DNA of 64,000 nt, taken from Candidatus Forterrea multitransposorum CG_2015-17_Forterrea_25_41. Its GTDB lineage: Archaea > Iainarchaeota > Iainarchaeia > Iainarchaeales > CSSED10-239. The notes below the pieces were generated by a model that saw nothing but the letters and a program-made list of their open reading frames with translations, did no database searches and was not told the DNA's origin. A program made the position numbers and the translations under genes. Of this stretch, positions 1,093 to 55,328 are shown one piece after another. The stretch's first letter is position 1. Each line of letters starts with the position of its first letter. The DNA lies in the NCBI GenBank assembly GCA_009392915.1, contig CP045477.1, positions 1-64,000 of the forward strand, given 5' to 3'.

Positions 1093-1111
1093 AAAAACAG
1101 GTGATTAAATC

Positions 1112-2207: not shown

Positions 2208-2210
2208 ATT

Positions 2211-5093: not shown

Positions 5094-5159
5094 TCTAGAG
5101 TCTATATATAAAACACCTCATAATAAAAAAAAGAAAAATAGTTTTTTTAAAATAAAAAA

Positions 5160-5912: not shown

Positions 5913-5976
5913 CTTTAAATCTCCCCCTTAGCTAATATATTATATAAGCGATAATATTAAAATACTAATCATTTGT

Positions 5977-6495: not shown

Positions 6496-6497
6496 AA

Positions 6498-6887
6498 TTA
6501 TTTTTTCTCAATATATATTTTTTTATTTTCTTTTCTAAAGAGGATTGTTTCTTTTTTAATTTCTCTAAAATCTACTTTAATTTCAATATTACTTTCTAAA
6601 AAATATTCTTTTTCTTCATTTGATATTTTATATTTTGAATCTATTTTTTCAATAGTCCATGTCTTTTTAGGTAATGCTTGAATCTCTTCAGAATAATTTT
6701 CTAATATTTCAGAAATATCTATATTTCCTTGTAATTTTTCAGAAAAACTTTTAATCTCTCTATTATCTATTATTTGCATATTTTTAGAATAAAGAGAGGT
6801 TGCTTGAATAATAATTAAGGAAAGCACAACTACAATAGAAAGCGATATTAAGATATACTCTAAACTAACTTGTGCTTTTTCATTCAC
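6498..6887 (-). CDS. Type IV pilin-like protein with a class III signal peptide
   Basis: The N-terminus MNEKAQVSLEYILISLSIVVVL is typical of archaeal prepilin/archaellin-like class III signal sequences. Confidence 0.45.
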   Translation of the reverse strand: MNEKAQVSLEYILISLSIVVVLSLIIIQATSLYSKNMQIIDNREIKSFSEKLQGNIDISEILENYSEEIQALPKKTWTIEKIDSKYKISNEEKEYFLESNIEIKVDFREIKKETILFRKENKKIYIEKK

Positions 6888-6901
6888 AGTTAATTTTTCC
6901 T

Positions 6902-7093
6902 TTAGTCTATTTTTTCTATTTGTTTAAACACATCATCTGCTTTGTCATCAACAGTTTTATTTGCTTTAGTTGTTGTTTTTTGTAACTGTGTTACAACTAC
7001 TAAAACTATAGCGATTATTGCAGCTATTAAAATTATCATTTCAGCAGAAATTTGTGCTTTTTGATCTTTAAATAAATATTTTAATTTATTCAT
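6902..7093 (-). CDS. Small type IV pilin-like protein with a class III signal peptide
   Basis: The N-terminus KAQISAEMIILIAAIIAIVLVVV is pilin-like, in a 63-aa protein. Confidence 0.45.
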   Translation of the reverse strand: MNKLKYLFKDQKAQISAEMIILIAAIIAIVLVVVTQLQKTTTKANKTVDDKADDVFKQIEKID

Positions 7094-7169
7094 AATTCTT
7101 CAAATAATTTATTGGTTATAAGATTATTTAAACCTTTTGTTCTTTATTTTTATTAAATATAATTAATAA

Positions 7170-7919
7170 ATGATTATCATGCAAAGATTAATAATTGTAA
7201 CTGGTGCAACTGGTGATTTAGGTAAAGAATATGTGAAAGTTTATTCCAAATTATCAGAAAATAAAGTTTATGCTATTTCAAGGCGAAAAGAAGACTTTCC
7301 AATAGAAGGTGTAATTTATCTTAATTGTGATTTAGAAAATAAAGATATAACTTTAAATGAAATTAATAAAATTTCTTTAGAGCACACCACTGAAATAGTA
7401 TTTATTCATCCTGTTGGAAAATTTAAGTTTGAAGAAAATGGAGACTTAATAAATAGTATTGATCAAGAAATATTTAAATCTAATTTAGATAGTTTTCATA
7501 ATGTTTTAAACCCTTTATTATTATTAAGAAAAGATAAAAATATTTTAATTAAATTAATTGCTTTTGGATCTTTAAGTGATTCTTTTAATGTACCTTGGTG
7601 GATTTCTTATAGTAAATCAAAACTTGCACTGAGAGCTGATATGAAGTCAATTTCTTTTTCTAAAAAAAATATTTGTTCTCTTTTTTTAAATTTAAGTAGT
7701 GTGAAAACTTTTAATGAACATAAAACAAGACCTTTTGCAGAAACTTCTTTTTGGCTTTCAGTTGATGAAATTGTAAAGAGATCTTTATCTATAATTGATT
7801 CTTTAAAAGAAAAATATACTGAAATTAATTTATATAATAATTCTCCTGAATATTATGAAGGTTATTACAAAGATTTTAATTTTTTAAAAGAAAAATGGTT
7901 AAAAGAAATGAAGGGCTAG
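7170..7919 (+). CDS. Rossmann-fold short-chain dehydrogenase/reductase-like protein
   Basis: N-terminal VTGATGDLGKEY dinucleotide-binding motif. Confidence 0.4.
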   Translation: MIIMQRLIIVTGATGDLGKEYVKVYSKLSENKVYAISRRKEDFPIEGVIYLNCDLENKDITLNEINKISLEHTTEIVFIHPVGKFKFEENGDLINSIDQEIFKSNLDSFHNVLNPLLLLRKDKNILIKLIAFGSLSDSFNVPWWISYSKSKLALRADMKSISFSKKNICSLFLNLSSVKTFNEHKTRPFAETSFWLSVDEIVKRSLSIIDSLKEKYTEINLYNNSPEYYEGYYKDFNFLKEKWLKEMKG

Positions 7920-7934
7920 AAGTCTTCTTTTTAT

Positions 7935-10253
7935 TTGTTTTTATCTATAATATATATATTTATGATTAAATCAATATATCTTGAAAATTGGAAAACCCAC
8001 CTTGATTCTAAGCTTTCCTTTCAAAAAGGAACAAACATACTCTTAGGTGTAATTGGTTCTGGAAAATCAAGTGTTGTTGATGCTATTTGTTATGCTTTAT
8101 ATGGTACATTTCCAACACTTTCAAACAGGAAAATAACTTTAGATGAAACTATAATGTTTAAACCTGTACAAAAAGAAAGTTTTAAGGTTATTTTAGAGCT
8201 TGTTCAAGAAAATAAATTATATTTAATAGAAAGAGAAGTATTTTCTGGAAATAAATCAAACTCTGCAAAAGTATATCTTGAAGGAAAGTTATTGGCTGGT
8301 CCTAAAAAAAGTGATGTTGATGAATTTATTTCAAAACTTTTAGGTATTGATTATAATCTTTTTATAAAAGTTGTATATTCTCAACAAAATGAAATTGATT
8401 ATTTTTTAAAAATAGCTCCTTCTAAAAGAAAAGAACAGTTTGATGATCTTTTTGGTATATCTCATTTTGAAAATATTAAAGTTTCAACAAGAGAAATTGA
8501 TAGACTTTTAAATCATGAAATTGATAAAAATGAACTTTTATTAAAACAAATAACTACTCAAATTTCAAATTATAATATAGAAGAACTTTTAGAAAAAGAA
8601 AAAGAAATAGCTGAAAAAATAACTTCTCTTGAAAAAGAAATTTTAGAAAAAGAAGTAAAAACTTTTTCTTTAAGTAAAGTAATTTCTGAAAAGAAGCTAG
8701 TTAAAGAAAAGCATGAATCCTTAACTTCTCAAATATCTTTATTTTCGTCCAGGCTTGAAGACTTTAATAAAGAATATACCTCTCTTTTAGAAAAAACTAA
8801 TCTTTCTTCTAAAGAAGAACTTGATCTCTTTGAAAAAGAGGTTTTTAAGAAAGAAAAATTCTTTAAAGAAAAACAAAATAAAAACAAAGAAACTGAGATT
8901 TTAAAAAAATCTTTAGATAACAAAATTTCTTTTTATGAAAATAATATTTTTCAAAACCAAGAAAGGATAAAAGAGCTTCTTTTAAAAATAGAAAAAGAAG
9001 AATTAACTATTCCTTTAATAGAGGAAAAGAAAAAATATCTTTTAGAAGAAATTGATTCTCTTAATATTTTAAAAATATCTTTACTTTCAAAACAAAAAGA
9101 TTTAGAAAAATCTTTTTATGAAATTTCTAAAGGCTTTTCAAACTGTCCTGTCTGTCAAACCCCTTTTACTGCAGATAAATTAACTGAAACTAAAGAGCAT
9201 ATAGATAAAGAGCTTTCAAGTCTATCTTTAAACCTAAAGGATTATTTAGAAAAAATAAAAGAAAAAGAAGATTTATTAAATCTGTTAAAAATAAAAGAAA
9301 AAACTTTAGAAAGAAATTTCTTAATTGAAAAACAAATTGAACAATTAAACAAAATAATTCTAGAAAATACTTATTTAAAAGAAAATGCCTTAACTGAAAT
9401 TAATTCTTTAGAAAAAATAGATGACTTGTCTGCTTTAGAAAAAGAAATTTTAAAAATAAAAGAGAGTCTTTCTCTTAAAAAAGAACTTTTAAAAATATCT
9501 GAAAAAATAAAAGAATACACCGAAAAAACAAAATTACAAAAAGAAGAGCTTTCAAAAATAAATTTTTCTCAAGAAGAATATCTAAATCTTTTAACAGATT
9601 ATAAAGGCTTAGAAAATAATTTCCTGCAAATAAAAGAATCCTTAACAAACTATAAATCCTTAAAAGAAAATTTAAAAAAACAATTAGAAAACCTAACCTC
9701 TCTTTCAAAACAAAAAGAAGAAGTAAGCCTTTCTTTTACAAAAATAAATAATAAAAAACAAGATCTTTCTTATTTTTTAAAAGCAATTGATAATAGCCAA
9801 CTACAGTTAAGAAAAGTTTTAATAGATAACATAAATCAAGCTCTTTCAATCATCTGGCCAAAAGTATATCCTTACAAAGATTATTTATCAGCAAGATTAA
9901 ATGCAGATAATGATTATATCTTAGAGGTCTTAACTTTAAAAAATAACTGGATAAGGGTTGAAGGTTTATTAAGTGGAGGAGAGAGGGCTTGTGCTTCACT
10001 TTCCATAAGGATTGCAATTTCTTTGATTCTTACAAAGAAATTAGGCCTTTTAATTCTTGATGAACCAACACATAATTTAGATGAAAAATCAATAGAGGCT
10101 TTATCAAATGTCTTAGAGGAAGAGCTTCCTGATCTTGTTGAGCAAATATTTATTGTGACTCATGATAATAAGCTTCTTGAAACAGTAAATGCAACTAAGT
10201 TTATAATAGAGAGAGATAAAGAAAACGATTCTGCTTCAAGAGTTAATTTTTAA
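7935..10253 (+). CDS. rad50: DNA double-strand break repair ATPase Rad50 (SMC-like)
   Basis: N-terminal Walker A (GVIGSGKSS), long coiled-coils, a central zinc hook CPVCQ, a C-terminal signature LSGGER, and Walker B LLILDEPT with D-loop. Confidence 0.85.
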   Translation: MFLSIIYIFMIKSIYLENWKTHLDSKLSFQKGTNILLGVIGSGKSSVVDAICYALYGTFPTLSNRKITLDETIMFKPVQKESFKVILELVQENKLYLIEREVFSGNKSNSAKVYLEGKLLAGPKKSDVDEFISKLLGIDYNLFIKVVYSQQNEIDYFLKIAPSKRKEQFDDLFGISHFENIKVSTREIDRLLNHEIDKNELLLKQITTQISNYNIEELLEKEKEIAEKITSLEKEILEKEVKTFSLSKVISEKKLVKEKHESLTSQISLFSSRLEDFNKEYTSLLEKTNLSSKEELDLFEKEVFKKEKFFKEKQNKNKETEILKKSLDNKISFYENNIFQNQERIKELLLKIEKEELTIPLIEEKKKYLLEEIDSLNILKISLLSKQKDLEKSFYEISKGFSNCPVCQTPFTADKLTETKEHIDKELSSLSLNLKDYLEKIKEKEDLLNLLKIKEKTLERNFLIEKQIEQLNKIILENTYLKENALTEINSLEKIDDLSALEKEILKIKESLSLKKELLKISEKIKEYTEKTKLQKEELSKINFSQEEYLNLLTDYKGLENNFLQIKESLTNYKSLKENLKKQLENLTSLSKQKEEVSLSFTKINNKKQDLSYFLKAIDNSQLQLRKVLIDNINQALSIIWPKVYPYKDYLSARLNADNDYILEVLTLKNNWIRVEGLLSGGERACASLSIRIAISLILTKKLGLLILDEPTHNLDEKSIEALSNVLEEELPDLVEQIFIVTHDNKLLETVNATKFIIERDKENDSASRVNF

Positions 10254-16297: not shown

Positions 16298-18844
16298 GTG
16301 TTTTTTATGGATGATGCAAATTTAATGCTTTTAAAAAAGAAAGTAAAAGCTATAAAACAATATAAAGGCCAAGGTACTCAACTTATAAGTCTTTATCTTC
16401 CACCTGATGCAGATAGAAGTTCTGCAACAAAACAATTAACTGATGAAATGAGTCAATCTTCAAATATTAAGAGTGCTCAGACTAGAAAAAATGTACAAGC
16501 AGCTTTAAAAAGAATTATTAATTATTTAAAACAAATTGATTTTAAACTTCCTGAAACAGGTTTAGTTTTATTTTCTGGAGATGTTTCAACTAATCCTTCT
16601 AAATCAGATGTAATTTTACTTGCAATTGCACCTCCTGTAAGACTTACAACTAAGCTTTATTGGTGTGATTCAACATTTCACATAGCTCCTTTAGAAGATA
16701 TGGCACAAACAGATGATGTTTATGGTTTAGTTGTTCTTGACAAACGAGAAGCAACAGTTGCTATTTTAAGAGGAAAATCTAAAGAAATTCTTTTTTCAGA
16801 AACCTCAAATGTTCCTGGTAAAACAAAAGCCGGGGGGCAATGTTTAAAAGATGCTTTTGTATCTTTATCTGATGGGAATTTAATAGATGTTAGTGAAATT
16901 TCTAAAAAGGATATTCTTTCTTCTATGAATTTTAAACAAAATAAATTAATTAATTCTAAGGTTTTAGATAATTGGTCAGTTTCTAAAAATAAAACATATA
17001 TTATTAAAACAAAAGCTCCTGGTACAGAAATAAAAGCTAGTGAAGATCATATATTTTTTGTTTTAACTCCAGATGGTGTTGTTGAAAAAGCTTCAAAAGA
17101 TTTAACTTTAAATGATTATTTGTTATTTCCAGAAAAATTATCTTATAAAAATAAAATTTGGTCTTTTGATACTAAAAAATATATTTCTAAATTAAATAAA
17201 CCTTCTATAAAGATACCTATAAAACTTAATAATGTATTTGCTAAATTTTTAGGTTATTTATTAGGTGATGGTTCTATTGAAACTGATAGATTAACTTTTT
17301 ATGAATCTAGAAAAGATGTTATTTTAGAATATAAAAAGTTATTTGATAAATATTTTAATGTAAATTCTTCTTTAACTTTTAGAGATTCTAAAAATTATTA
17401 TCAATTAAGAGTTAATTCAACTGCTCTTGTAAGATTAATTAAAGAAGAATTTAAGGAAATTAAAAAAGCAAGAGATTCTTTAATACCTTCTAAAATATTA
17501 ACTTCTTCTAATAAAATATTAGCTAATTTTTTAAAAGGATTTTATGATGCTGAAGGTTATATTAATACTTCTAGAAAATCAATAGATATTGGAATAAATA
17601 ATAAAAAAATTGCACAACAACTTCAATTATCATTATTAAGATTTTCAATTATTGGATCTTTACAAGAATATGATAATAAACAAAATCCTTATACAAATAA
17701 CCATAGGTTTGTGATTTCAATTTCTGATAAAGAGTCAATAGATTCTTTTGAAAAAAATATTAATTTTACTTCTTTTGAAAAGCAAAAAAAAATAAAAAAA
17801 ATTCAAAAATTAAAAACAAACATGAGTTTCTCAAGAACACTTCCTGTATATGGTAGTCAGGTTAGATCTGTTGTTACAAAACATGGTTATAATTTAGAAC
17901 TTTTCCCAAAAGTGAGTAGTTTTTTCAATAATAATAGAATGCTTAGTAAATGCTTTTTTAAAAGTTCTGTTTTAGATTATGTTAAAGATAAATCTCTTTT
18001 AAAAGATTTAATTAAATTTTATAATATGCCATTTTTTGCTGCAAAGATAAATTCTATATTTATTGAAAAAAAGAAAACAATTATGACAGACATTTCTGTT
18101 GCTAATAAATCTTTTATTGCAAATGGATTAATTGTTCATAATTCAGCACATAGATTCGAAAGACTAAGAGATAAATATGAAGAAGAGTTTTATAAGAGAG
18201 TAGGTTCTAAAGTAAATACTGCTTTTGTAGATCTTGATAATTTTAAAGGAATGATTGTTGGTGGTCCTGGACTTACTAAAAATGAATTTTTAGAAATTGG
18301 TGATTTAGACCACAGAATAAAAGATAAAGTTTTAGGAACTGTAGATACTTCTTATACAGATGAGTCAGGTATAAAAGAAGTTTTAGATAAATCTGAAGAT
18401 ATTTTAAAAGAAACTGGTTTAGTTCATGAAAGAAAATTAATTAATAAGTTTTTTGAAGACTTAGCAAAAACAGGCCTTGCAAATTATGGTTTTCAAGATG
18501 TAATTGATGCCTTAAATATTGGTAAAGCTTCAACTGTTTTAGTGTCTGAAGGTTTAGAATGGACTGTTTTAATTTTTAAATGTTTATCAGACAAATCTAG
18601 ATTTATAAAAATTGTTAAAGATAAACATGAAGTTTCTGATACTATCTCAAAATTTGAAAATTCTCCAACAGATTGTCCAGAAGGTAAAGCAGAACTTGTT
18701 GAAGAAGTTGATATATATGATTATTTTATAGATATTTCTAAAAATACAAGTGCAAAAGTTGAACTTATTTCTATTGAAACTTTAGAAGGTAAACAATTTT
18801 TTGAAACTTTTGGAGGGCTTGCAGCTTTCTTAAGATATAGGTAA
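16298..18844 (+). CDS. prf1: Peptide chain release factor aRF1 interrupted by an in-frame intein
   Basis: The exteins (181 + 233 aa) have the aRF1 architecture, including the catalytic GGQ followed by SAHRFERLR. A 434-aa insertion begins with Cys and ends with His-Asn, followed by Ser. Confidence 0.8.
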   Translation: MFFMDDANLMLLKKKVKAIKQYKGQGTQLISLYLPPDADRSSATKQLTDEMSQSSNIKSAQTRKNVQAALKRIINYLKQIDFKLPETGLVLFSGDVSTNPSKSDVILLAIAPPVRLTTKLYWCDSTFHIAPLEDMAQTDDVYGLVVLDKREATVAILRGKSKEILFSETSNVPGKTKAGGQCLKDAFVSLSDGNLIDVSEISKKDILSSMNFKQNKLINSKVLDNWSVSKNKTYIIKTKAPGTEIKASEDHIFFVLTPDGVVEKASKDLTLNDYLLFPEKLSYKNKIWSFDTKKYISKLNKPSIKIPIKLNNVFAKFLGYLLGDGSIETDRLTFYESRKDVILEYKKLFDKYFNVNSSLTFRDSKNYYQLRVNSTALVRLIKEEFKEIKKARDSLIPSKILTSSNKILANFLKGFYDAEGYINTSRKSIDIGINNKKIAQQLQLSLLRFSIIGSLQEYDNKQNPYTNNHRFVISISDKESIDSFEKNINFTSFEKQKKIKKIQKLKTNMSFSRTLPVYGSQVRSVVTKHGYNLELFPKVSSFFNNNRMLSKCFFKSSVLDYVKDKSLLKDLIKFYNMPFFAAKINSIFIEKKKTIMTDISVANKSFIANGLIVHNSAHRFERLRDKYEEEFYKRVGSKVNTAFVDLDNFKGMIVGGPGLTKNEFLEIGDLDHRIKDKVLGTVDTSYTDESGIKEVLDKSEDILKETGLVHERKLINKFFEDLAKTGLANYGFQDVIDALNIGKASTVLVSEGLEWTVLIFKCLSDKSRFIKIVKDKHEVSDTISKFENSPTDCPEGKAELVEEVDIYDYFIDISKNTSAKVELISIETLEGKQFFETFGGLAAFLRYR
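16841..18142 (+). mobile_element. Intein with a LAGLIDADG homing-endonuclease domain inserted in aRF1 between Gln181 (of GGQ) and Ser
   Basis: N-terminal Cys, C-terminal VHN with a +1 Ser, and two LAGLIDADG-type blocks (FLGYLLGDGS and LKGFYDAEGYI). Confidence 0.75.
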
Positions 18845-23625: not shown

Positions 23626-24737
23626 AATTGTGTTGCATAACTCTTTTTAAAAGTATTGTCTAACCTATTTTATTACTAGATAAAGGAGGTTAGACAATAT
23701 GAATATTAAGAACGAAAAGATTAATAAAAGGAACTGGTCAAAGATAAATTATGGAAAAACAAGACAAATCTTGTTTTTACTAGATAAAAACATTATTTTT
23801 AGTGAAAATGAAAGACTAGTTTCCCAAAATAAAAACAAACCAGGAAGACAATTTATATATAGTGATAGAATAATAGAACTATTAATTGATCTTAAAAATT
23901 ATTTTAAATTTGATTATCGTAAACTACAGGCATTCTGCCTGTTGTTTAATAATGTTATAAAAATAAAAACACCTGACTTTACAACTATTTGTAGAAGAAT
24001 GCACAAATTAGAATTATTTCTAAAAAATATAAAAACAAAAAAAGAACCAACCTTTATAGCTATAGATGGTTCTGGACTTCAAACTACTAATCGAGGAGAA
24101 TGGCTTAGATTAATACACAAAAAAGGAAAAATAAACTTAAGAAATGGATTTGTAAAATTAGTGATTGCAACAGATGTTGCATCTGGAGAAATAACTGGAG
24201 TGTATATTTCAGATGATTCTGATTTTGAAAATAAAAGCTTATCAGATTTATTATACCAAACAATAAATAATCAAAACCAAGAAGTCAAAGGACTTCTTGG
24301 AGATGGGGCATACGATTCTTATGATAACTTTGATATGCTTGATGATATGGGAATAAAACCAATTATCAAAATCAGAAAGAATGCAATTACAACAGAACCT
24401 AATGACGATTATTTAAAAAGAAGAAGAAAACTTGGAAAAAAGAAAAAAATAAAAAGAATTGAAGTTGCAAAAAAGCAACTTAAAAATGTAGATGACTGGA
24501 AACAAAAAAATGAGTATAATAAAAGGTGGGTTGTTGAATACACGTTTAGTGTATTCAAAAGACTATTCGGACATAGTGTGTACTCTAAAAGAAAGAAATA
24601 TGTCAAAAATGAAGTAATTTCTAAAGTAAATTTGTATAATAAATTATTAAATATCAATTAAGAAAAAAATAAAATGAATTAAAAAAAGAAATAAGCTAAA
24701 AATATTGTGTAAAACACAATATTTGTGCAACACAATT
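23626..24737 (+). mobile_element. IS5-family-like insertion sequence
   Basis: Perfect 12-bp terminal inverted repeats aattgtgttgca at 23626-23637 and, reverse-complemented, at 24726-24737, extendable to ~17 bp. They flank a single DDE transposase ORF. Flanking T-rich sequence is consistent with an ~8-bp target duplication (ttttttat). Confidence 0.65.
23699..24661 (+). CDS. DDE transposase (IS5/IS4 superfamily)
   Basis: Catalytic blocks IAIDGSG, LGDGAYDS and VVEYTFSVFKRLFG, the E-containing block typical of IS5-family transposases. Confidence 0.65.
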   Translation: MNIKNEKINKRNWSKINYGKTRQILFLLDKNIIFSENERLVSQNKNKPGRQFIYSDRIIELLIDLKNYFKFDYRKLQAFCLLFNNVIKIKTPDFTTICRRMHKLELFLKNIKTKKEPTFIAIDGSGLQTTNRGEWLRLIHKKGKINLRNGFVKLVIATDVASGEITGVYISDDSDFENKSLSDLLYQTINNQNQEVKGLLGDGAYDSYDNFDMLDDMGIKPIIKIRKNAITTEPNDDYLKRRRKLGKKKKIKRIEVAKKQLKNVDDWKQKNEYNKRWVVEYTFSVFKRLFGHSVYSKRKKYVKNEVISKVNLYNKLLNIN

Positions 24738-24818: not shown

Positions 24819-26192
24819 ATGGCTATAGACAAAAGATTTTTTTTAGGGATAACTATTAGTAAAAAAAGAAAAGCAATTTCTCCTTTAATTGCCACTATTC
24901 TTTTAATAGTTGTTGCCGTTGCAATTATAGCTATTATTGTTTCCTGGGGAAAAGGATTTACCAATGATTCTTTAAGCAAAGCCTCTGGTCTTGAAATTTA
25001 CACTGAATCAGAAACTTCTTTTTACTTGCAAGTAAAAAATTCAATAAACGGAAGAACTGTTGTTCAATATAATCCTCCTTATAATTCTCCTCACACCTCT
25101 TTAACCATAACAGGTTATAGCCTACATGGTAACACGAATATTAATCCCATAGATCCACCAATTACAATAACTGCAAACCAAACTGCAGTTATTGATCATG
25201 GTATTTTATTTCCAGAATTAAATTTAGTTTTATATTTGGATAATGATCGAATGATTATTAAAACTGATCTTTTACAAACTATTAAATCTCCTCTTTCTTG
25301 TCCAGAAGGTTATGTTTCTGTTCCAGGAAACCACTTATATGGAACTATGAATGAAAGTGGGGGTTTTTGTGTTTCAAAATATGAGATGAAAATGGATAGA
25401 ACAGGAGATGGAATAGGAAATCTTGTAGCTGATTATCCTGATTGTAACACCGGTTCTTTAACATATAATACTTATAGTTATGAATTATGCCCTACACCAG
25501 GCACTTTAGTTTCTACTCCAGAAGGTTCTCCCATAGCAAGAATCACACAAACTGAAAGCATATCAGCCTGTGAAGCTATTGGTGGTCATTTAATAACAAA
25601 TAACGAATGGATGACCATTGTACGAAACATAGAACAAGTTCCATCTAATTGGTCAGGTGGAGCAGTTGGTGATGGCTACCTTCCAAGAGGGAATTCATCT
25701 TCTTCAGGAGCTATGGAAGGCTTTGATCAACTTTCAGGAACTACCAAAAGAACCTTGACCTTAACAAACGGAGAGGTAATTTGGGATTTAGCAGGAAATG
25801 TAAGACAATGGACCAGTGACACTATTCAAAGAAAGGACCAGCCTGATGGTTTTAATAATGTAGATGATAGTAATAATACTTCTGGTTTTAATTGGTTTGA
25901 TTATTTTAAGGGCGGTGGAGTAGATCAATATATTTATTCTGATAATTTAGGTAACACCACCTTAAAGTATAAAGATTTATTTTTATTAACTAGTAATACT
26001 TATAATGCAACAGATAATGGTGTTGGAAGGATTTATACTTATAGTGATTTTAGTGATACTAGTACAACTGAGTACGCGTTTTTGCGCGGTGGTCACTGGG
26101 GCAATGGCACTAATGCCGGGGTCTTGCACCTGGTCTTGAACAAGACTCCTGGGTCCCGGAGCATCCTCATCGGCCTGCGCTGTGTCAAGTAG
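24819..26192 (+). CDS. DGR target (variable) protein: pilin-like surface protein with a C-terminal FGE/C-type-lectin-fold domain
   Basis: N-terminal class III signal/archaeal pilin-like segment KKRKAISPLIATILLIVVAVAI. FGE/DUF1566-type motifs GGHLITNNEWMTIV, GNVRQWTSD, and a C-terminal FLRGGHWGNG...GLRCVK coinciding with the VR repeat. Confidence 0.8.
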   Translation: MAIDKRFFLGITISKKRKAISPLIATILLIVVAVAIIAIIVSWGKGFTNDSLSKASGLEIYTESETSFYLQVKNSINGRTVVQYNPPYNSPHTSLTITGYSLHGNTNINPIDPPITITANQTAVIDHGILFPELNLVLYLDNDRMIIKTDLLQTIKSPLSCPEGYVSVPGNHLYGTMNESGGFCVSKYEMKMDRTGDGIGNLVADYPDCNTGSLTYNTYSYELCPTPGTLVSTPEGSPIARITQTESISACEAIGGHLITNNEWMTIVRNIEQVPSNWSGGAVGDGYLPRGNSSSSGAMEGFDQLSGTTKRTLTLTNGEVIWDLAGNVRQWTSDTIQRKDQPDGFNNVDDSNNTSGFNWFDYFKGGGVDQYIYSDNLGNTTLKYKDLFLLTSNTYNATDNGVGRIYTYSDFSDTSTTEYAFLRGGHWGNGTNAGVLHLVLNKTPGSRSILIGLRCVK

Positions 26193-26195
26193 TTT
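26075..26195 (+). repeat. DGR variable repeat (VR) at the 3' end of the target gene
   Basis: The 121-bp GC-rich segment matches 27300-27420 at 108 of 121 positions. 12 of the 13 mismatches correspond to adenines in the other copy. Confidence 0.85.
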
Positions 26196-26498
26196 TTAGA
26201 AAAAATATATTTCATCCCCAAACCATGTATTTAGACGGGTGAGACGGCAAGACGGCCAGACGGAAGAAGCCATGGCAACCTAAACGTTTCAAGATTGTTT
26301 TTGCAAAAAAATGAAAAAACGTATTTGTGAAGTTTTAAAAAAAAGAAATGAGTGTGATTTTTGCAAATTTTTTTGATTTTTTTCAAAAAAATTTGCTAGC
26401 CGTTAAACCAAATGGTTTTTTAATGTAAAAATAATTTTTATAATAATTAAGTTTTAAAGAAAAAATACTTTATATCTTGGACAAACAATGTGATTTAA

Positions 26499-26885
26499 AT
26501 GAGTTTAGTTGGAAATGAAAAAGGAATTCTAAATTTTGGTGTTTACAAGGAGCTTTTCCCAATCGTTATTGAAACTTATAATTTTTTAGAAAATAATAAA
26601 TCTTTATTTAAAGTAGATTTTGTTTATACAGATACTGTTAAAAATTTAATAGATATTCTTTCTTTTCTTTCCAAAGGGTATAATAAATTTCATTCTAATG
26701 AAAAATCTTTACTTTACTCTTATTCAAGAGATTGTGTTTCTACAACCCAATCTAATCTTTTAATATTATCTGAACTTAATAAAGATCTCTCAAAAGAAAA
26801 AACCTTATATTTTTATAATCAATTTGAGGATAAAATAAAGTATTTTAATGGTTTAATAAAAAAGATTGAAGAAAATAAAAACTAG
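26499..26885 (+). CDS. Hypothetical protein located between the DGR target and avd
   Basis: 128-aa ORF of unknown function within the DGR cassette. Confidence 0.3.
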   Translation: MSLVGNEKGILNFGVYKELFPIVIETYNFLENNKSLFKVDFVYTDTVKNLIDILSFLSKGYNKFHSNEKSLLYSYSRDCVSTTQSNLLILSELNKDLSKEKTLYFYNQFEDKIKYFNGLIKKIEENKN

Positions 26886-26896
26886 GGTATATTATT

Positions 26897-27226
26897 ATGT
26901 TATTTGACTTAAAGTTATATAAAGAAACTTATAACTTTTTACTTTATATTTATCCTGAAATAAATAAATTCCCTAAATCAGATAAATATTCTTTAGGAGA
27001 GGATATTAAAAAAACAACTATTTCTTTAATGTCAAATATTGTTCTTTTTTCAAAGCATAATGAAAATACTTTAAAAGAAGCAGATAAAAACTTAGAATTA
27101 CTAAGAATATATATTAGGCTTTCTTTTGATTTAAAAATAATCTCTTTTAAAAAATATGAGGTTATTTCAAGGCAATTAAATGATATTGGTAATTTATTAG
27201 GTGGTCTTTTAAAACAAAAGATTTAA
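26897..27226 (+). CDS. avd: DGR accessory variability determinant (Avd)-like four-helix-bundle protein
   Basis: 109 aa with the pattern FPKSDKYSLGEDIKKTTISLMSNI, reminiscent of the bAvd/23S-rRNA-intervening-sequence protein family. It is positioned immediately upstream of TR. Confidence 0.6.
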   Translation: MLFDLKLYKETYNFLLYIYPEINKFPKSDKYSLGEDIKKTTISLMSNIVLFSKHNENTLKEADKNLELLRIYIRLSFDLKIISFKKYEVISRQLNDIGNLLGGLLKQKI

Positions 27227-27299
27227 ATATTTTTTCAACTAATAGTTATGTTGTTCTTTTAAATAAAAAGAATAGGGCTTTTACAGAAAAAAACAGGTG

Positions 27300-27420
27300 C
27301 GCGTTTTTGCGCGGTGGTAACTGGAACAATGGCACTAATGCCGGGGTCTTGAACCTGAACTTGAACAATACTCCTGGGAACCGGAACAACAACATCGGCC
27401 TGCGCTGTGTCAAGTAGTTT
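27300..27420 (+). repeat. DGR template repeat (TR)
   Basis: Intergenic 121-bp copy of VR, adenine-rich in AAC codons, located between avd and the RT gene. Confidence 0.85.
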
Positions 27421-27422
27421 CT

Positions 27423-27445
27423 CCTTATTATTTTTAATAATAAGG
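27423..27445 (+). other. Perfect 10-bp stem hairpin immediately downstream of TR
   Basis: ccttattatt-ttt-aataataagg. Confidence 0.4.
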
Positions 27446-27678
27446 TTTTATCAGAGTTTGTATGTTTATTTTTTTATCTAAAAAAACATATAAAGCGAAT
27501 ATTTTAAAAAACTACATCTGTAAAATGTTTCCTGATTGCACATAATGTGTGCCATAAGAACTATTTTGTTTTTATGTTAAAAAATCAAATATAAAGATAA
27601 GTTATTACATTTAGTATTTTTATAGTCTGTAAAAAGAAATCTGTAATAACTCTTAACTTTAAATAAGGCTTTTTAAAA

Positions 27679-28695
27679 ATGAAATCATACAATAACCTTT
27701 GGCAAGAATTCACTTCTTTTAAAAATATTTTTAATGCCTATAAAAAAGCAAGAAAGTCCACACCAAACAAAAAGTATATCTTGCAATTTACCACAAATTT
27801 AGAAAAGGAGTTATTCTTATTACAAGATCAATTAATTTCAGAAAATTTTCAATTTTCTCCTTACAGAAGTTTTAAAGTTTATGAACCTAAAGAAAGAACA
27901 ATAAGTGCACCTATTTTCAGGGATGTTGTTGTTCAGCATGCCATAATAAACATTATTGAACCTATTTTTGATAAAACCTTTATAGATAACTCTTTTGCTT
28001 GTAGAAAAGGAAAAGGCACACATAAAGGGCTTTTTGAAATTAAAAAAGTAATTCAAACCCCAAATCATCCAAAATACTATTTAAAACAAGATGTAAAGAA
28101 ATACTTTCCTTCAGTTCATAAACCTACCTTAAAAGAAATAATTTTTAAAAGAATTAAGGATGCAAGATTACTTTCTCTAATATATAAAATAATTGATAGT
28201 TATTCTTTTGATTTAAATCAAATTCAAAAAGGTATCCCTATAGGTAATTTAACCTCTCAGTTGTTTGCAAATATTTATTTAAACCATTTAGATCAGTATG
28301 TTAAGCATTCTTTAAAAATTAAACATTATTATAGATATGTAGATGATTTTTTAATATTTTCAAACAATAAAAGAAAATTACATGTTTTTAGAAGAAAAAT
28401 AAAATTATTTTTAAGTAAAGAACTATTATTAGATGTTCCAAAAAATAAAACTTATATAAACTTAGTAAGTAAAGGAGTTGATTTTTTAGGTTATAAGGTA
28501 TTTCCTTCAAACATAAGATTAAGAAAATCAAATCTTAAAAGATTTCTTCTAAGACAAAATAAAAATAACTTTCTTCTAAAAAAAAATCAAATTTCTAAAC
28601 TTAACTATAATTTTTCTCTTTTTTCTTTTTTAGGTTATGCAAAGCATGCAAACTCTTATAATCTCTTAAGTACTTTAAATATTAATGAGTTATAG
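27679..28695 (+). CDS. DGR reverse transcriptase
   Basis: RT motifs FRDVVVQHAI, the DGR-diagnostic motif 4 PIGNLTSQLFANIYLN (IGxxxSQ), and motif 5 YYRYVDDFLIF (YxDD). 338 aa; adjacent to TR. Confidence 0.85.
   Translation: MKSYNNLWQEFTSFKNIFNAYKKARKSTPNKKYILQFTTNLEKELFLLQDQLISENFQFSPYRSFKVYEPKERTISAPIFRDVVVQHAIINIIEPIFDKTFIDNSFACRKGKGTHKGLFEIKKVIQTPNHPKYYLKQDVKKYFPSVHKPTLKEIIFKRIKDARLLSLIYKIIDSYSFDLNQIQKGIPIGNLTSQLFANIYLNHLDQYVKHSLKIKHYYRYVDDFLIFSNNKRKLHVFRRKIKLFLSKELLLDVPKNKTYINLVSKGVDFLGYKVFPSNIRLRKSNLKRFLLRQNKNNFLLKKNQISKLNYNFSLFSFLGYAKHANSYNLLSTLNINEL
28589..28687 (+). repeat. 99-bp direct repeat, copy 1 (3' end of the RT coding sequence)
   Basis: Near-identical to 30138-30236. Confidence 0.8.
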
Positions 28696-28838: not shown

Positions 28839-30104
28839 ATGGATAAAGCTTTTTTAAGAAACGTTGTTTCTGACCAGTATGAAGATTTAAAAGATGTTTC
28901 AAAAACAATACAAAGATATGATTCAAAAGAAATAGCGCGCTTTGTAAATAATCCTGCTATATCTATAATTTCAGGAGTAAGGCGTTGTGGTAAGTCCACT
29001 TTTTTAGAGCAGATAATAAATTTATATTATAAAAATAACTTTTATTATTTTGATTTTTCTGATGAAAGAATTGCAAAATTTGAAACTGCTGACTTTCAAA
29101 CATTATATGAGGTGTTTTTAGAAAAATTTGGAAAAAGACAGGCTTTTTTCTTTGATGAAATACAAGGAGTTCCAGAATGGAATAAATTTGTTAATAGAAT
29201 GAAAAAGATTGGGCATAAATGTTTTGTAACCGGTTCAAATTCAAATTTGTTAAGTCAAGAAATATCTACTTATCTAACAGGAAGACATATTGATAAAATC
29301 TTATTCCCTTTTTCCTTTAAAGAATATTTAACGTATAAAAATATTAATGTAGATTTAGATTCTACAAAATCAAGAACCTTAATTATTAAAGAGTTTAAAA
29401 ATTACTTTAAAATAGGTGGTTTTCCAGAGGTTGTTTTAACAAACGATACTTCAATTTTATTAAATATTTATTCTGACATAATTTCTAAAGATATAATTGA
29501 AAGATTTAGGATTAATGATGTTTCTTTATTTAAAGAATTTTGTAATTATGTAATTTCTTTATCTACGAATGAATTTACTTTTAAATCATTAAAAGATAAT
29601 TTTAATATTCAGAATATTACTACTGTTTCAAACTATCTTGATTATCTTAAATTAACTTACCTTGTTTATGAAGTTAAAAGATTTTCTTCTTCATTACAAA
29701 AATTAAATAAATATCCAAAAAAATATTATTGTATAGATAATGGTTTATTAAATAAAGTGGGTTTTGGATATTCAATAGAGGAAACTAGATTTTTAGAAAA
29801 TCAAGTTTTTATTGAACTTTGGAGAAATAATCCGCAATCTGAAATTTATTATTATAGAGATAAGGATAATAAAGAATGTGATTTTTTATTGTTAAATGAT
29901 AGAAAAGTAGTTAAGGCTATTCAAGTGTGTTTTGCTTTTAAAAAGATAGATACTAGAAAAAGAGAAATAGAAGGTTTACTATCTGCTTTAAAAGAGTTTA
30001 ATCTAAATTATGGCGAAATTATTACTTTTGAGCATAAAGAAAAATTAAAGATAGATGGAAAAGTAATAGAGATGATTCCTGTATATGAGTGGTTATTAAA
30101 ATAA
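28839..30104 (+). CDS. DUF4143/COG1373-family AAA ATPase
   Basis: Walker A GVRRCGKST, Walker B FFFDEIQ, and a C-terminal DUF4143-like region. 421 aa. Confidence 0.65.
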   Translation: MDKAFLRNVVSDQYEDLKDVSKTIQRYDSKEIARFVNNPAISIISGVRRCGKSTFLEQIINLYYKNNFYYFDFSDERIAKFETADFQTLYEVFLEKFGKRQAFFFDEIQGVPEWNKFVNRMKKIGHKCFVTGSNSNLLSQEISTYLTGRHIDKILFPFSFKEYLTYKNINVDLDSTKSRTLIIKEFKNYFKIGGFPEVVLTNDTSILLNIYSDIISKDIIERFRINDVSLFKEFCNYVISLSTNEFTFKSLKDNFNIQNITTVSNYLDYLKLTYLVYEVKRFSSSLQKLNKYPKKYYCIDNGLLNKVGFGYSIEETRFLENQVFIELWRNNPQSEIYYYRDKDNKECDFLLLNDRKVVKAIQVCFAFKKIDTRKREIEGLLSALKEFNLNYGEIITFEHKEKLKIDGKVIEMIPVYEWLLK

Positions 30105-30137: not shown

Positions 30138-30236
30138 AAATTTCTAAACTTAACTATAATTTTTCTCTTTTTTCTTTTTTAGGTTATGCAAAGCATGCAA
30201 ACTCTTATAATCTCTTAAGTACTTTAAATATTAATG
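30138..30236 (+). repeat. 99-bp direct repeat, copy 2 (intergenic)
   Basis: Near-identical copy of the RT 3' end, downstream of the ATPase gene. Confidence 0.8.
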
Positions 30237-30336: not shown

Positions 30337-30549
30337 ATGAAATATAGAGTTTTAATAGAACAAGACGAAGATGGTATCTTTGTTGCTGAATGCCCTAGTC
30401 TTCCAGGTGCAATTTCTCAAGGAAAAACAAGAGAAGAAGCAATAATAAATATTAAAGAAGCCATAAAAGGTTATCTTGAAAGTTTAAAGATAGCTAATGA
30501 ACCAATTCCTTCTCCAATATCTGAAGAAATAATTGATATTTATGGATAA
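30337..30549 (+). CDS. hicB: HicB-like antitoxin (UPF0150)
   Basis: MKYRVLIEQDEDGIFVAECPSLPGAISQGKTREEA is typical of HicB. It overlaps the downstream hicA. Confidence 0.6.
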   Translation: MKYRVLIEQDEDGIFVAECPSLPGAISQGKTREEAIINIKEAIKGYLESLKIANEPIPSPISEEIIDIYG

Positions 30550-30766
30550 ACTGCCTATTATATCTGGTCAAGATTTAATCAAATTACTTCTAAAATTAGA
30601 TTATCAAGTTCATCATCAAACTGGATCACATATTATCTTAAGACAAAATAAAGAACCTTTTAGAAGATTAACAATTCCAAACCATAAAGAAATTTCAATA
30701 GGGACTTTAAGAGCAATTATAAGGCAAGTTGGAATAACAAGAGAAGAATTTGTTAAATTATTCTAA
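30533..30766 (+). CDS. hicA: HicA-like mRNA interferase toxin
   Basis: YcfA/HicA fold signature with conserved His (QTGSHIILRQ). 77 aa. Confidence 0.6.
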   Translation: MIFMDKLPIISGQDLIKLLLKLDYQVHHQTGSHIILRQNKEPFRRLTIPNHKEISIGTLRAIIRQVGITREEFVKLF

Positions 30767-31041
30767 ATTAAATTGTTCTTTTAATTATTATTTTTAATTT
30801 TTTTAAAGTAAAATAAATAATTTTTAACCTAATTTAAATGTTTTTAAGTAATTTATAATATTTTTTTAATTTACTACATAAAAACAAATCTTTTTAAGCA
30901 ATTCGGTCTATAATTATATTATATAAAAAATCTACTTTTATAAATATCCTATTTTTTGCGGCTGTTTTAATTATTAAAAACAGTAGTAGATAGGTTATTG
31001 ATTTTTAGTTTCTATGATTAGAAGACAAGAGGTTAATTAAC

Positions 31042-31719
31042 ATGATAAAAACAAAAGATATTATTGAAATTGATCTAATTTTAAAAGATGTAAATACTAA
31101 TGAAATTTTAGATACTACAAAAAAAGAAATTGCGAAAGAAAATAATTTAAATTTAAAAAATGAATATAAACCTTTAAATTATGTTTTTGGTACTGGAGAA
31201 CTTTTAAAAGGTATTGAAGATAATATTTCTGATTTAGAAGTTTCTAAAACAAAAACATTTGTTTTAAAAAAAGAACAAGCTTTCAAAGATAAAGACCCTA
31301 AAAAAATAGAATTAGTTTCTTTAAATGAATTTAAAAAAGAAAATGTAAGACCAGAAGTTGGTTTATTTGTAAATATTGGAAATAGATCTGGAAAAATAAT
31401 TTCTGTTTCTGGTGGAAGAGTTAAAGTTGATTTTAATCCTATTTATGCAGGAAGAGATTTAGAATATACTGTAACAATAAATAAAGTTATTTCTAAAGAT
31501 TCTGATAAACTTCCTTTACTTTTAGAAAAGGCATTTTATTTTATGCCAAAAGAACAAATTAATTTAATTTCTAAAGAAGATGAAATTGAAGTTGAAATGC
31601 CTTTAGGTGTTCCTCAAGAAATTGATTATTTTAAACAATTTTTTGCAAAACTAGTTTTTGATTCAACTAATTATGAAAATGTTAAGTTTGTTCAAAAATT
31701 AACTAAGAAAAAAGGGTGA
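31042..31719 (+). CDS. FKBP-type peptidyl-prolyl cis-trans isomerase (long archaeal type)
   Basis: FKBP core (YVFGTGELLKGIEDNI ... NPIYAGRDLEYTVTI) with an IF-domain insertion. Confidence 0.6.
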   Translation: MIKTKDIIEIDLILKDVNTNEILDTTKKEIAKENNLNLKNEYKPLNYVFGTGELLKGIEDNISDLEVSKTKTFVLKKEQAFKDKDPKKIELVSLNEFKKENVRPEVGLFVNIGNRSGKIISVSGGRVKVDFNPIYAGRDLEYTVTINKVISKDSDKLPLLLEKAFYFMPKEQINLISKEDEIEVEMPLGVPQEIDYFKQFFAKLVFDSTNYENVKFVQKLTKKKG

Positions 31720-31725
31720 ATTATT

Positions 31726-32331
31726 TTGAATGATAAAACATTAAAAACAGGTACAACAACAGTTGGAATTGTTGCAAAAGATGGTATTGTTTTAGCAGCT
31801 GATATGCAAGCTACAATGGGTAATTTAGCAGTTAATAATAATACTACTAAAATATACAAAATTAATGATTCTATTGCAATGACAATTGCAGGTTCTGTAG
31901 GGGATGCTATGGTTTTAATTAGATATCTTCAAAATCATGCAAATCTTTATGAACTTGAACATAAGAGGGCTTTAAGTACAAAATCATGTGTAACTCTTTT
32001 GTCAAATATTTTAAATTCTAGTAAAATGCTTCCGTTCTATTCTCAATTAATTCTTGCAGGAGCAGATCAAGAACTTTATTCTCTAGATATGCTTGGAGGA
32101 TTTTCAAAAGAAGATAATTTTTCATTTTCAGGTTCAGGTTCAGAACTTGCTTTAAGTGCACTTGATAAAGGTTATAAATCTAATATTTCTATTAAGGATA
32201 CTATTGAACTTGCAAAAGAAGCTATTACTTCTGCTAAGAAAAGAGATGTTTTTACTGGCGGAGATGGAATAAAAGTTGTAATTATTAAAAAAGATGGTAT
32301 TGAAGAACTACCTATTGAAAAATACAAATAG
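31726..32331 (+). CDS. psmB: Proteasome beta subunit
   Basis: The TTTVGIVAKDGIVLAAD propeptide/Thr1 region is typical of archaeal PsmB. Confidence 0.8.
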   Translation: MNDKTLKTGTTTVGIVAKDGIVLAADMQATMGNLAVNNNTTKIYKINDSIAMTIAGSVGDAMVLIRYLQNHANLYELEHKRALSTKSCVTLLSNILNSSKMLPFYSQLILAGADQELYSLDMLGGFSKEDNFSFSGSGSELALSALDKGYKSNISIKDTIELAKEAITSAKKRDVFTGGDGIKVVIIKKDGIEELPIEKYK

Positions 32332-37617: not shown

Positions 37618-37699
37618 GCAGAGGTGGCGGAGTGGTCAAACGCGCCAGCCTTGAGAGCTGGAGCCTTGCGCTACACGAGTTCGAATCTCGTCCTCTGCG
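37618..37699 (+). tRNA. tRNA-Ser (anticodon TGA), type II with long variable arm
   Basis: Acceptor gcagagg/cctctgc, anticodon stem ccagc/gctgg with loop cttgaga, T-loop ttcgaat. No encoded CCA. Confidence 0.8.
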
Positions 37700-37730
37700 C
37701 TTTATCTTTTAAAATATAGGAATTTTTATT

Positions 37731-38063
37731 ATGATTAAAGAAAACATTTCTTTTCAAGATTTTTTAAAACTTGATATAAGAATTGGAACAATTGTTGAGG
37801 CTGAAGCTGTTGAGGGTTCTGATAAATTAATAAAATTAATAATTGATTTTAAAGATTTTAAAAGACAGATTTTAGCTGGTATTAAAACAAAATATCAACC
37901 AACTGATTTATTAAACAAACAAATTCCTGTTATTGTAAATTTAGAACCTAGAAAAATGATGGGTTTTGAAAGTCAAGGAATGATCTTAGCTGTTGGAGAT
38001 AAAACTTTAGATGCTTTACTTTTACCATCTGAGCCTGTATCGGAAGGCTCGATTGTACACTAA
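37731..38063 (+). CDS. tRNA-binding domain protein (Trbp111/CsaA/EMAP-like)
   Basis: LDIRIGTIVEAEAVEGSDKLIKL OB-fold tRNA-binding signature. 110 aa. Confidence 0.65.
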   Translation: MIKENISFQDFLKLDIRIGTIVEAEAVEGSDKLIKLIIDFKDFKRQILAGIKTKYQPTDLLNKQIPVIVNLEPRKMMGFESQGMILAVGDKTLDALLLPSEPVSEGSIVH

Positions 38064-38084
38064 TTTTTTTTTAAAACTAAAAAT

Positions 38085-38166
38085 GCAGAGGTGGCGGAGT
38101 GGTCAAACGCGCAAGCCTGGAAAGCTTGAGCCTCGTGCTACGCGAGTTCGAATCTCGTCCTCTGCG
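38085..38166 (+). tRNA. tRNA-Ser (anticodon GGA)
   Basis: Same scaffold as the upstream tRNA-Ser; anticodon loop ctggaaa. Confidence 0.8.
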
Positions 38167-38197
38167 CTTTTTTCTTTTTTAATTTAATATTTATTTT

Positions 38198-38286
38198 GCA
38201 GAGATGGCGGAGTGGTCAAACGCACAAGTTTCGAAAACTTGATTAAGGTTTTTTCCTTTACATGAGTTCAAATCTCATTCTCTGCG
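38198..38286 (+). tRNA. tRNA-Ser (anticodon CGA)
   Basis: Acceptor gcagaga/tctctgc, anticodon loop ttcgaaa, long variable arm, T-loop ttcaaat. Confidence 0.75.
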
Positions 38287-38462
38287 TAGCTGGTTTCGGT
38301 CAGCTAGCACCCAATGATTTTGCGTTTGTTAACGCTTATTTAAACTTTCTTTTTAAAAGAAGTGATTTTCCCCCAAAACTTTTTTTCTTTAAAAATTGTG
38401 TTTTAAAAATTTTTAATCTATTTTATATCTATTTAAAATACTTTTGCCTCTCTTTAATATTT

Positions 38463-55211: not shown

Positions 55212-55328
55212 GTTAGCGGCCATAGGGATGGAGAAACACCTGGACCCTTTCCGAACCCAGAAGTTAAGTCTATTGCCGTTTTAGTTCGCTGTTAGTTCAT
55301 GCTAGTAGCGTCTTTAAAGCTGCTAACA
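55212..55328 (+). rRNA. 5S rRNA (divergent, unlinked to 16S/23S)
   Basis: 5' gcggccatag...ccgaacccagaagttaag conserved 5S blocks. Terminal helix ttagcggc/gctgctaa with one G·U pair. The middle/3' part is AT-rich and atypical. Confidence 0.55.

Follow-up and report, generated by a model that had tools for sequence, protein, structure and literature searches.

Evidence for a chromosomal diversity-generating retroelement with a pilin-like, lectin-fold target protein in Candidatus Forterrea multitransposorum

The first 64,000 nucleotides of contig CP045477.1 of Candidatus Forterrea multitransposorum (assembly GCA_009392915.1, forward strand), referred to here as the window, were found to contain what we consider, with a probability of about 0.9, to be a chromosomal and functional diversity-generating retroelement (DGR) of the Avd-TR-RT type. 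The element consists of a target gene that ends in a variable repeat (VR), a second accessory gene (ORF128), the accessory variability determinant gene avd, an intergenic template repeat (TR), a structured spacer and a reverse transcriptase (RT) gene. An earlier note on this DNA, made from the letters alone, had described the series target-VR, open reading frame (ORF), avd, TR and RT, and each of these components was found at the position and in the order given there. Anatomy of the locus, family membership of the RT, Avd and target proteins, adenine-specific differences between VR and TR, allelic turnover of VR in natural populations alongside an invariant TR and conservation of spacer structure are shown by the present analysis. 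The features of the element are as follows.

24819-26192, plus strand: DGR target gene, 457 aa (ORF call and Pfam FGE-sulfatase match at 7.4e-7, above cut-off)
24864-24947, plus strand: pilin-type N-terminal segment of the target, KRKA followed by ISPLIATILLIVVAVAIIAIIVSW (TIGR02537, residues 17-47)
26075-26195, plus strand: VR, comprising the final 39 codons of the target, its stop codon and 3 additional nt (repeat alignment)
26233-26263, plus strand: AGACGG x4 tandem array with a period of 8-9 nt, after a conserved TGTATTT
26363-26396, plus strand: inverted repeat GCAAATTTTTTTG...CAAAAAAATTTGC, conserved, in the gap that separates target and accessory genes (alignment with L014 and L018)
26499-26885, plus strand: ORF128, the second accessory gene, 128 aa, pI 7.7
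26897-27226, plus strand: avd, 109 aa, pI 9.35 (NF033474, Pfam bAvd)
27300-27420, plus strand: intergenic TR, which has 30 adenines (27 precede its GC-rich 3' block)
27414-27652, plus strand: structured part of the DGR RNA spacer (RNAalifold, 9 loci)
27679-28695, plus strand: DGR RT, 338 aa, pI 10.0 (phmmer against PDB, RVT_1)

Alignment of VR with TR was ungapped over 121 nt and revealed 13 mismatches, 12 of which were at adenines of TR (4 each to C, G and T) while the other was a T>G difference at repeat position 70. Given the 30 adenines among the 121 bases of TR, the hypergeometric probability that at least 12 of 13 mismatches fall on A is 8.1e-8, in agreement with the claim of the earlier note that differences between the repeats fall almost exclusively at TR adenines. 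The repeats were also, as claimed, GC-rich near-copies of one another in AT-rich DNA (58.7% GC for VR and 51.2% for TR as opposed to 24.6% for the window). No third VR-like copy was found in the window when both strands were scanned with A positions ignored. VR comprises codons 419-457 of the 457-codon target, and its GC-rich 3' part (TCGGCCTGCGCTGTG...), which is identical to that of TR, resembles an initiation of mutagenic homing (IMH) sequence. Upstream of the GC-rich block TCGGCCTGCGCTG, the 27 mutable adenines of TR are distributed over 15 in-frame codons (9 AAC, 3 AAT, 2 ACT and 1 ATC), which corresponds to 1.8e16 DNA variants and approximately 8e15 protein variants without stop codons. 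Mismatches between VR and TR of related cassettes were likewise at adenines, in 20 of 20 cases for a paralogous cassette of the same assembly and in 16 of 16 cases for the syntenic cassette of a relative (L014; L numbers designate contigs and loci retrieved from public data).

The RT matched Pfam RVT_1 (1.5e-21), and its best relative of solved structure, identified by phmmer against PDB, was the DGR RT of Bordetella phage BPP-1 (8ub7_A; 3.7e-54, 187.5 bits), residues 3-317 of which aligned end to end with residues 2-331 of the present enzyme. In this alignment, GIPIGNLTSQLFAN was opposite GIPIGSLTSQLFAN of the Bordetella RT, with GIPIG(S/N)LTSQLFAN as the common motif, and YVDD was opposite YMDD. 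Thus, the DGR-diagnostic IGxxxSQ motif 4 and the YVDD motif reported earlier were located at 28240-28260 (IGNLTSQ, aligned to IGSLTSQ of 8ub7_A) and 28336-28347, respectively. In the same search, group II intron RTs scored at most 83 bits (best 1.8e-22) and retron-type RTs 74 bits, more than 100 bits behind 8ub7_A, and the RT scored below the curated NCBIfam cut-offs for group II RTs (TIGR04416, 148.8 versus 300 bits), retron RTs (NF038233, 56.7 versus 235 bits) and the Drt families. Nor was any group II intron or retron RNA detected in the window by comparison with Rfam, which identified only 3 tRNAs and 5S rRNA. The note had named grouping with group II intron or retron RTs as the outcome that would speak against a DGR; the results speak for the DGR type and, as judged from its sequence, the RT is a member of the DGR clade.

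The small Avd-like gene predicted at 26897-27226 was recognized by a curated model, the NCBIfam equivalog NF033474 'DGR protein Avd' (92.4 bits versus a cut-off of 80), as well as by Pfam bAvd (2.2e-21). In contrast with this basic protein, the product of ORF128 is near-neutral and, taken alone, had no match in Pfam, NCBIfam or PADLOC. A homologue of 122-136 aa was present directly upstream of avd in every related cassette retrieved (i.e., L014, L015, L017, L018/19, L020 and L141-L145, the RTs of which are 52-99% identical). In a search of 1.84 billion proteins, a profile of the ORF128 family found no more than 51 representative clusters; 24 of 40 relatives identified with the profile matched PF05635 (23S rRNA IVP/four-helix bundle; best 1.5e-39) and 2 of 40 matched bAvd. 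The profile also matched the IVP-family structure 2gsc_A (4.9e-5), and the fold of ORF128 was that of a four-helix bundle, closest to IVP/Avd structures. Direct profile-profile comparison (hhalign) with four local Avd sequences did not link the ORF128 family to Avd (probability 0.2), and support for homology is transitive, through the profile relatives and 2gsc_A, and from the fold. Compared with the IVP/four-helix-bundle family (PF05635, TIGR02436; PDB 2gsc, 2rld), ORF128 is too divergent to be recognized by the Pfam model. A search of genome contigs with the ORF128 alignment returned one locus (L020, Ca. Iainarchaeum sp.). We conclude that ORF128 represents, beside Avd, a second and divergent Avd/IVP-superfamily protein that is conserved in this DGR clade, where it presumably contributes to DGR function. 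The presence of two avd genes in one DGR was noted in the survey of 372 DGRs by Wu et al. (PMC5758913).

The target protein (GenBank NCT58966.1) begins with a class III signal/pilin-type N-terminal helix, which is followed by a beta-sandwich and then by an FGE-subclass domain of the C-type-lectin (CLec) type that contains VR. Its N-terminus passed TIGR02537 (archaellin/type IV pilin N-terminal; 24.1 bits versus a cut-off of 20), which was also matched by 37 of 61 target homologues, and the protein was matched by phmmer to the pilin 8fk7_A (1.4e-3). An AlphaFold (AF2) model obtained from the 61 homologues (pLDDT 89, pTM 0.83) showed a helix at residues 22-56, the strands of the beta-sandwich at 70-152 and the CLec domain at 160-457. 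The best Foldseek matches of this model were DGR variable proteins (TaqVP, 5vf4, 1.3e-9; Mtd, 1yu4, 3.6e-5), followed by FGE, while the N-terminal part matched the Pyrobaculum type IV pilus (8fk7_A; 5.7e-4, TM(target) 0.42). Taken together, the TIGR02537 score, the FGE-sulfatase match and the structural matches support the description of the target as a pilin-like FGE-fold surface protein. A putative prepilin-peptidase site follows Ala19, and the protein would be processed and exposed at the surface of the cell or carried on a pilus; neither a prepilin peptidase nor an assembly ATPase was identified in the scanned parts of the window, the rest of the genome being outside the scan.

Variation of VR in nature was evident from public assemblies, in which the exact RT and Avd protein sequences were present in more than 60 blocks. 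TR was identical to that of the window in 13 of 13 contigs from at least ten samples. VR occurred as allele A in the window, L004 and L007, as allele B, which has one further A>T change, in L001, L002, L005 and L011, and as allele C, which differs from TR at 19 positions, in L003/L009; the same three full-length alleles were found in the corresponding protein cluster on 14, 4 and 11 contigs. Differences from TR were at TR adenines for 12 of 13 positions in allele A, 13 of 14 in allele B and 16 of 19 in allele C. Comparison of the window with L003 by BLAST revealed 25 substitutions in 14,098 nt, 18 of which were inside the 121-nt VR (this total is the BLAST count of substitutions, and an indel at 30946-30998 also separates the two sequences); most inter-strain variation at the DGR locus lies in VR. 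A fourth VR allele was present in L145, a sequence from another project and site that is 98% identical over 2.9 kb. This VR (521-644) departs from its TR at 16 A sites and by a C>T change; it also has an additional codon inside a run of AAC-AAC-AAC, which may reflect RT slippage on the repeat. Thus, the population hypervariability at TR-adenine positions that had been proposed as a check was seen by proxy, in assembly alleles, as an invariant TR accompanied by at least three alleles of VR.

Several observations weigh against interpretation of the locus as a functional DGR. The allele of VR in the window carries the T70G mismatch, which is not at an adenine, and no difference of the IMH/IMH* kind was seen within the repeat, the 3' ends of VR and TR being the same to the last base. 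A GC hairpin of the BPP-1 type was not found downstream of VR, where predicted folding was worse than that of shuffled sequences (z=+2.09). Both the IMH difference and the downstream hairpin vary among DGRs. The last few codons of the RT gene have been replaced by insertion of a 1.45-kb cassette. The termination of contigs L006, L012 and L013 inside or at VR fits the presence of mixed alleles but could also stem from the VR/TR repeat itself rather than from heterogeneity. In addition, the evidence of turnover consists of assembly consensus alleles, as opposed to reads or cDNA, and at the main site there are only three such alleles, which track two strain types, so that turnover may be rare.

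A DGR that once worked but is now inactive, with only historical differences in VR, would account for the small number of consensus alleles among dozens of assemblies from one site and their linkage to two strains, as well as for the altered C-terminus of the RT and the presence of an insertion sequence (IS) 150 nt upstream of the target gene. We regard this as improbable because every population contig has the four ORFs in intact and conserved form, because strains that differ by approximately 0.05% elsewhere differ by 15% in VR, and because only one change, located at a TR adenine, separates alleles A and B, a kind of position at which VR of the paralogous cassette also varies. Ordinary homologous recombination between strains, as opposed to retrohoming, has somewhat poorer prospects as the source of the VR alleles. 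In the published account of Ca. Forterrea multitransposorum from Crystal Geyser, which describes many transposons, two main strains, an origin next to cdc6 with the pyruvate:ferredoxin oxidoreductase gene nearby, and variation that is concentrated close to the origin and to one transposon, clusters of single-nucleotide polymorphisms near the origin and transposons were ascribed to homologous recombination and no retroelement was mentioned (PMC5905446). The fact that VR alleles track two strain types agrees with this account. Recombination can move alleles, but it leaves unexplained both the TR-adenine bias of each allele and the identity of flanking sequences right up to the borders of the repeat.

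The least probable of these alternatives, to which we give hardly any weight, is that the RT is part of a different retroelement or of a defence system (i.e., a group II intron, retron or defence-associated RT (DRT)) and that the repeat is incidental. Relatives of this RT are labelled 'retron-type RT' by JGI, generic PADLOC models for RT and DRT gave matches of 1e-50 to 1e-37, and TIGR04416 (group II) gave 2e-43. These group II, retron and DRT matches were all below curated cut-offs, however, and well behind the match to the BPP-1 enzyme; besides the missing intron RNA, no maturase or endonuclease domain is present in the 338 aa, and a curated Avd is encoded next to the RT. Interpretation of the locus as a working DGR was therefore retained.

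Conserved RNA structure was apparent in the spacer of this DGR when sequences from the 3' end of TR to the RT start codon were aligned for 9 loci. The consensus structure (RNAalifold) contained 34 pairs, 13 of which were accompanied by compensatory changes, and 94.5% of cells in the alignment were paired as opposed to 43-54% when partners were slid by 1-3 columns; the observed covariation was reached by none of 500 column shuffles. The strongest helix was H4 (27599-27609 with 27642-27652), in which 8 of 11 pairs had changes on both sides. Two further helices were formed by 27424-27426 with 27443-27445 (H2) and by 27457-27467 with 27484-27494 (H3). In helix H1, the 3' end of TR (27414-27422) pairs with invariant AAAAACTAC (AAAAACUAC) at 27507-27515; covariation is silent on this helix since it never varies. 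The spacer of BPP-1 RNA, reportedly, from work by Handa et al., folds back onto the end of TR and so positions priming. H1 appears to resemble that fold-back. The priming nucleotide is predicted near conserved ACUACAUCUGUA at 27510-27521.

The region downstream of VR contains, approximately 40 nt past the stop codon, the AGACGG x4 array, which was the single match in the window (0 expected) and which was found at the same place in L014, L018/L019 and L020. More distant relatives (L015, L142, L143 and L144) had a 3-5-fold array with 7-9-nt units of other sequences (ATCGG, TTGCCGC, TATCTG). The array pattern GACGGNNNAGACGGNNAGACGG gave at least 120 matches in metagenome contigs, and none of the 120 matches listed was in a DGR-like or AT-rich context, the pattern being too loose. 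At the position of the inverted repeat (26363-26396), relatives have a GC-rich hairpin and a run of T, and this element may be a terminator or part of a leader.

From these components, a course of events may be proposed. The accessory operon (ORF128, avd, TR, spacer and RT) would be transcribed, and RT together with Avd, and probably also the four-helix-bundle protein encoded by ORF128, would bind the RNA of TR and its structured spacer. The RT would then copy TR to cDNA, presumably from a primed site as outlined above, with misincorporation opposite template adenines, and the cDNA would take the place of VR in the 3'-terminal part of the target gene, where the GC-rich block common to both repeats would serve as the 3' boundary. 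The residues so varied would lie on the ligand-binding face of the CLec domain, where they would meet a putative ligand, atop a stalk like that of archaeal type IV pilins. Such a lectin domain on a pilin-like stalk would be displayed on the surface or pilus of a host-dependent DPANN archaeon.

The paralogous cassette mentioned above is a second DGR outside the window in the same assembly (locus-tag prefix GW776; L018 6429-10222, L019). It comprises a target gene, an IVP-like ORF of 131 aa, avd, TR2 (8813-8933 of L018) and an RT of 343 aa, and its 121-nt repeats VR2 and TR2 differ at 20 positions, all of which are adenines. The two strains have VR2 sequences that disagree at one TR-adenine position, and in more distant members of the cluster VR2 is wholly different. 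TR2 differs from the local TR only at the repeat ends and at positions 34, 43 and 56, which are A, A and T in the former as opposed to C, C and C in the latter. The non-adenine differences of allele C from the local TR are at exactly these positions (G, G and T, respectively). Relative to TR2, all interior differences of allele C are at adenines, and the probability of the positional coincidence alone is 8e-6. Allele C retains local sequence at the ends of the repeat, which indicates that only the interior was replaced. Bases substituted in common with VR2 numbered 11-12 of 15 for allele C versus 4-5 of 13 for allele A; for allele C, the probability of this sharing is 3e-4 to 2e-3 under uniform substitution and 0.03-0.08 when A>G bias is allowed for. 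Descent of allele C from VR2 is thus suggested, not decided, by the shared bases.

These sequence comparisons suggest cross-talk between the two cassettes as the origin of allele C, either because cDNA of TR2 homed into the local VR or because VR2 converted the local VR; neither course is preferred. A less likely explanation, though one with some claim to attention, is that no cross-talk occurred and that allele C is old, having been written before the local TR gained its three substitutions. In agreement with this possibility, positions 34, 43 and 56 are A, A and T not only in TR2 but also in the TR of L014, and this would therefore be the ancestral state of the local TR. However, L145, which is 2% diverged and from another site, already has C, C and C in its TR, while the two strains differ by approximately 0.05%; survival of an old allele is weakened by this result since allele C would have had to remain unwritten for far longer than the time since the strains split. 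The number of substituted bases that allele C has in common with VR2 also weighs against this possibility. Separately, the L014 cassette (5128-9011) is syntenic with the DGR of the window, yet in ORF128, Avd, RT and TR it resembles the second DGR (81-87% identity and 4 TR differences) more closely than the window DGR (76-80% identity and 12 TR differences), which points to faster evolution of the window copy or to exchange of cassettes.

A broader proposal, which we hold tentatively and at somewhat less than even odds, is that the DGRs of this genome of approximately 0.84 Mb are not independent, the local VR of one strain having been rewritten from the other cassette (by TR2 cDNA acting in trans or by conversion of the local VR by VR2), that canonical Avd and the divergent IVP-like protein form a heteromeric accessory module in this Iainarchaeota DGR clade, and that a tandem array that varies between lineages replaces the hairpin beside the target site. 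If this proposal is true, DGR activity would account for some of the 'recombination hot spot' reported for Ca. Forterrea close to its origin and transposon.

Comparison with known systems indicated that the cassette is like that of BPP-1 (mtd-avd-TR-brt) in its order (i.e., target with 3' VR, avd, intergenic TR, spacer and RT), in an RT that can be aligned end to end, in an Avd of the four-helix-bundle type and a VR domain of the CLec/FGE fold (with Mtd as a structural match), in adenine-specific mutagenesis with AAC codons, and in a structured spacer between TR and RT. Unlike the BPP-1 element, it is cellular, chromosomal and archaeal, contains an extra gene of the Avd superfamily, lacks both the GC hairpin after VR and IMH mismatches within the repeat, and diversifies a pilin-like cell-surface protein rather than the tip of a phage tail fibre; sequence similarity between its Avd and Bbp7 of BPP-1 is marginal (E=0.63). 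Like DGRs of DPANN archaea and Nanoarchaeota, it comes from an uncultivated subsurface archaeon with a small genome, has a CLec-fold target and contains Avd-sized ORFs between target and RT (PMC4372165, PMC8144416; structure of AvpA, PMC5006420), while the trinucleotide-loop hairpin of Nanoarchaeota is present in the relative L015 but absent here. TaqVP of Thermus aquaticus (5VF4), the best structural match of the target, is also weakly similar to it in the VR segment (RGGxWGNG...AG) but is bacterial, has no pilin-type N-terminal domain and is only 16-18% identical. In having a hypervariable adhesive domain on a pilin scaffold, the target is comparable to the type V pilus adhesins of Bacteroides (bioRxiv 10.1101/2024.11.15.621889). 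Candidate phyla radiation (CPR) homologues (P0246, P0248, P0255 and P0256) combine the bacterial N_methyl pilin motif with FGE and are true homologues of the CLec part. In contrast with these CPR and Bacteroides pilus proteins, the scaffold here has an archaeal class III signal/archaellin-type N-terminus (TIGR02537).

Occurrence of DGRs in DPANN archaea was described by Paul et al. 2015 (PMC4372165), and they were reported to be abundant there by Paul et al. 2017, as that study is cited in PMC8144416 and PMC5758913. Roux et al. 2021 noted that targets of archaeal clade-5 DGRs typically contain no recognizable transmembrane or other domain. Placement of the present RT in clade 5 of Roux et al. 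is expected, and the RT is probably already included in large metagenome surveys. The locus is thus a well-documented new example of a DGR and not a new kind of system. Descriptions of a pilin-type N-terminus on archaeal DGR targets, of a clade-wide IVP-like second accessory gene or of a sign of exchange between two cassettes were not found in the literature surveyed, to which Paul et al. 2017 did not belong.

Attachment to host cells is the way of life of DPANN archaea, which possess hardly any metabolism themselves, and how they recognize their partners is an open question. A hypervariable lectin domain on a pilin-like stalk, together with natural allelic turnover, makes the target a testable candidate for a host-recognition adhesin. 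The locus is also a compact natural system in which to ask whether two DGRs in one cell can write each other's targets, and it bears on the job of a second Avd-like subunit and on the DNA element that replaces the hairpin of BPP-1. A note of caution also follows, in that homologous recombination need not be the source of all localized variation in genomes of this kind.

The archaeal origin claimed for the DNA was evident from genes for Cdc6/Orc1, PCNA, GINS, primase, aRF1, proteasome and AglB within the window. Relatives were annotated as Ca. Iainarchaeum, and relatives of the RT as Iainarchaeota, Aenigmarchaeota, Pacearchaeota, Nanoarchaeota and Altiarchaeales. In L014 (GCA_015657875.1; RT 76% identical), the gene order is helicase, UPF0175, target, ORF128, avd, RT, FKBP and proteasome. 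The neighbours of the DGR are the same in the window and in L014 (helicase-UPF0175 on one side and FKBP-proteasome on the other), which indicates a chromosomal and vertically inherited position. Three items of the window are absent from L014, namely an IS, an AAA_14/DUF4143 gene and a HicB/HicA pair. The IS, which carries a DDE_Tnp_1 transposase (23699-24661), lies between the UPF0175 gene and the DGR target gene, and most population contigs stop at this element, approximately 200 nt upstream of the target.

The AAA_14/DUF4143 ATPase gene (28839-30104) matches the PADLOC phage-defence candidate PDC-S01 (1.5e-102) and is bracketed by a perfect 99-nt direct repeat (28589-28687 and 30138-30236), the first copy of which is at the 3' end of the RT gene; no integrase was found inside the insert. 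The copy of the repeat beyond the insert reads ...NINGFIV followed by a stop, like the end of the paralogous RT (...INGFDRIF followed by a stop), and the ancestral C-terminus of the RT was therefore probably displaced by the insertion. The ATPase insert and the FKBP gene are separated by the genes for HicB antitoxin and HicA toxin (30337-30766), the former of which is truncated in L011 by loss of 1 nt at 30449. The FKBP-type and proteasome beta-subunit genes are called as a single fused product (429 aa) in the population contigs L006 (4905-6194) and L013 (4826-6115), while the corresponding stretch of the window (31042-32331) contains two separate ORFs.

At the start of the window (1-5093), the gene for Cdc6/Orc1 comes first and minus-strand genes for pyruvate:ferredoxin oxidoreductase come next, which suggests that the replication origin is adjacent. 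The aRF1 (eRF1-type release factor) gene at 16298-18844 contains an intein with a LAGLIDADG homing-endonuclease domain. A cluster of three tRNA-Ser genes (TGA, GGA and CGA) and a lone 5S rRNA gene were located at 37618-38287 and 55212-55328, respectively.

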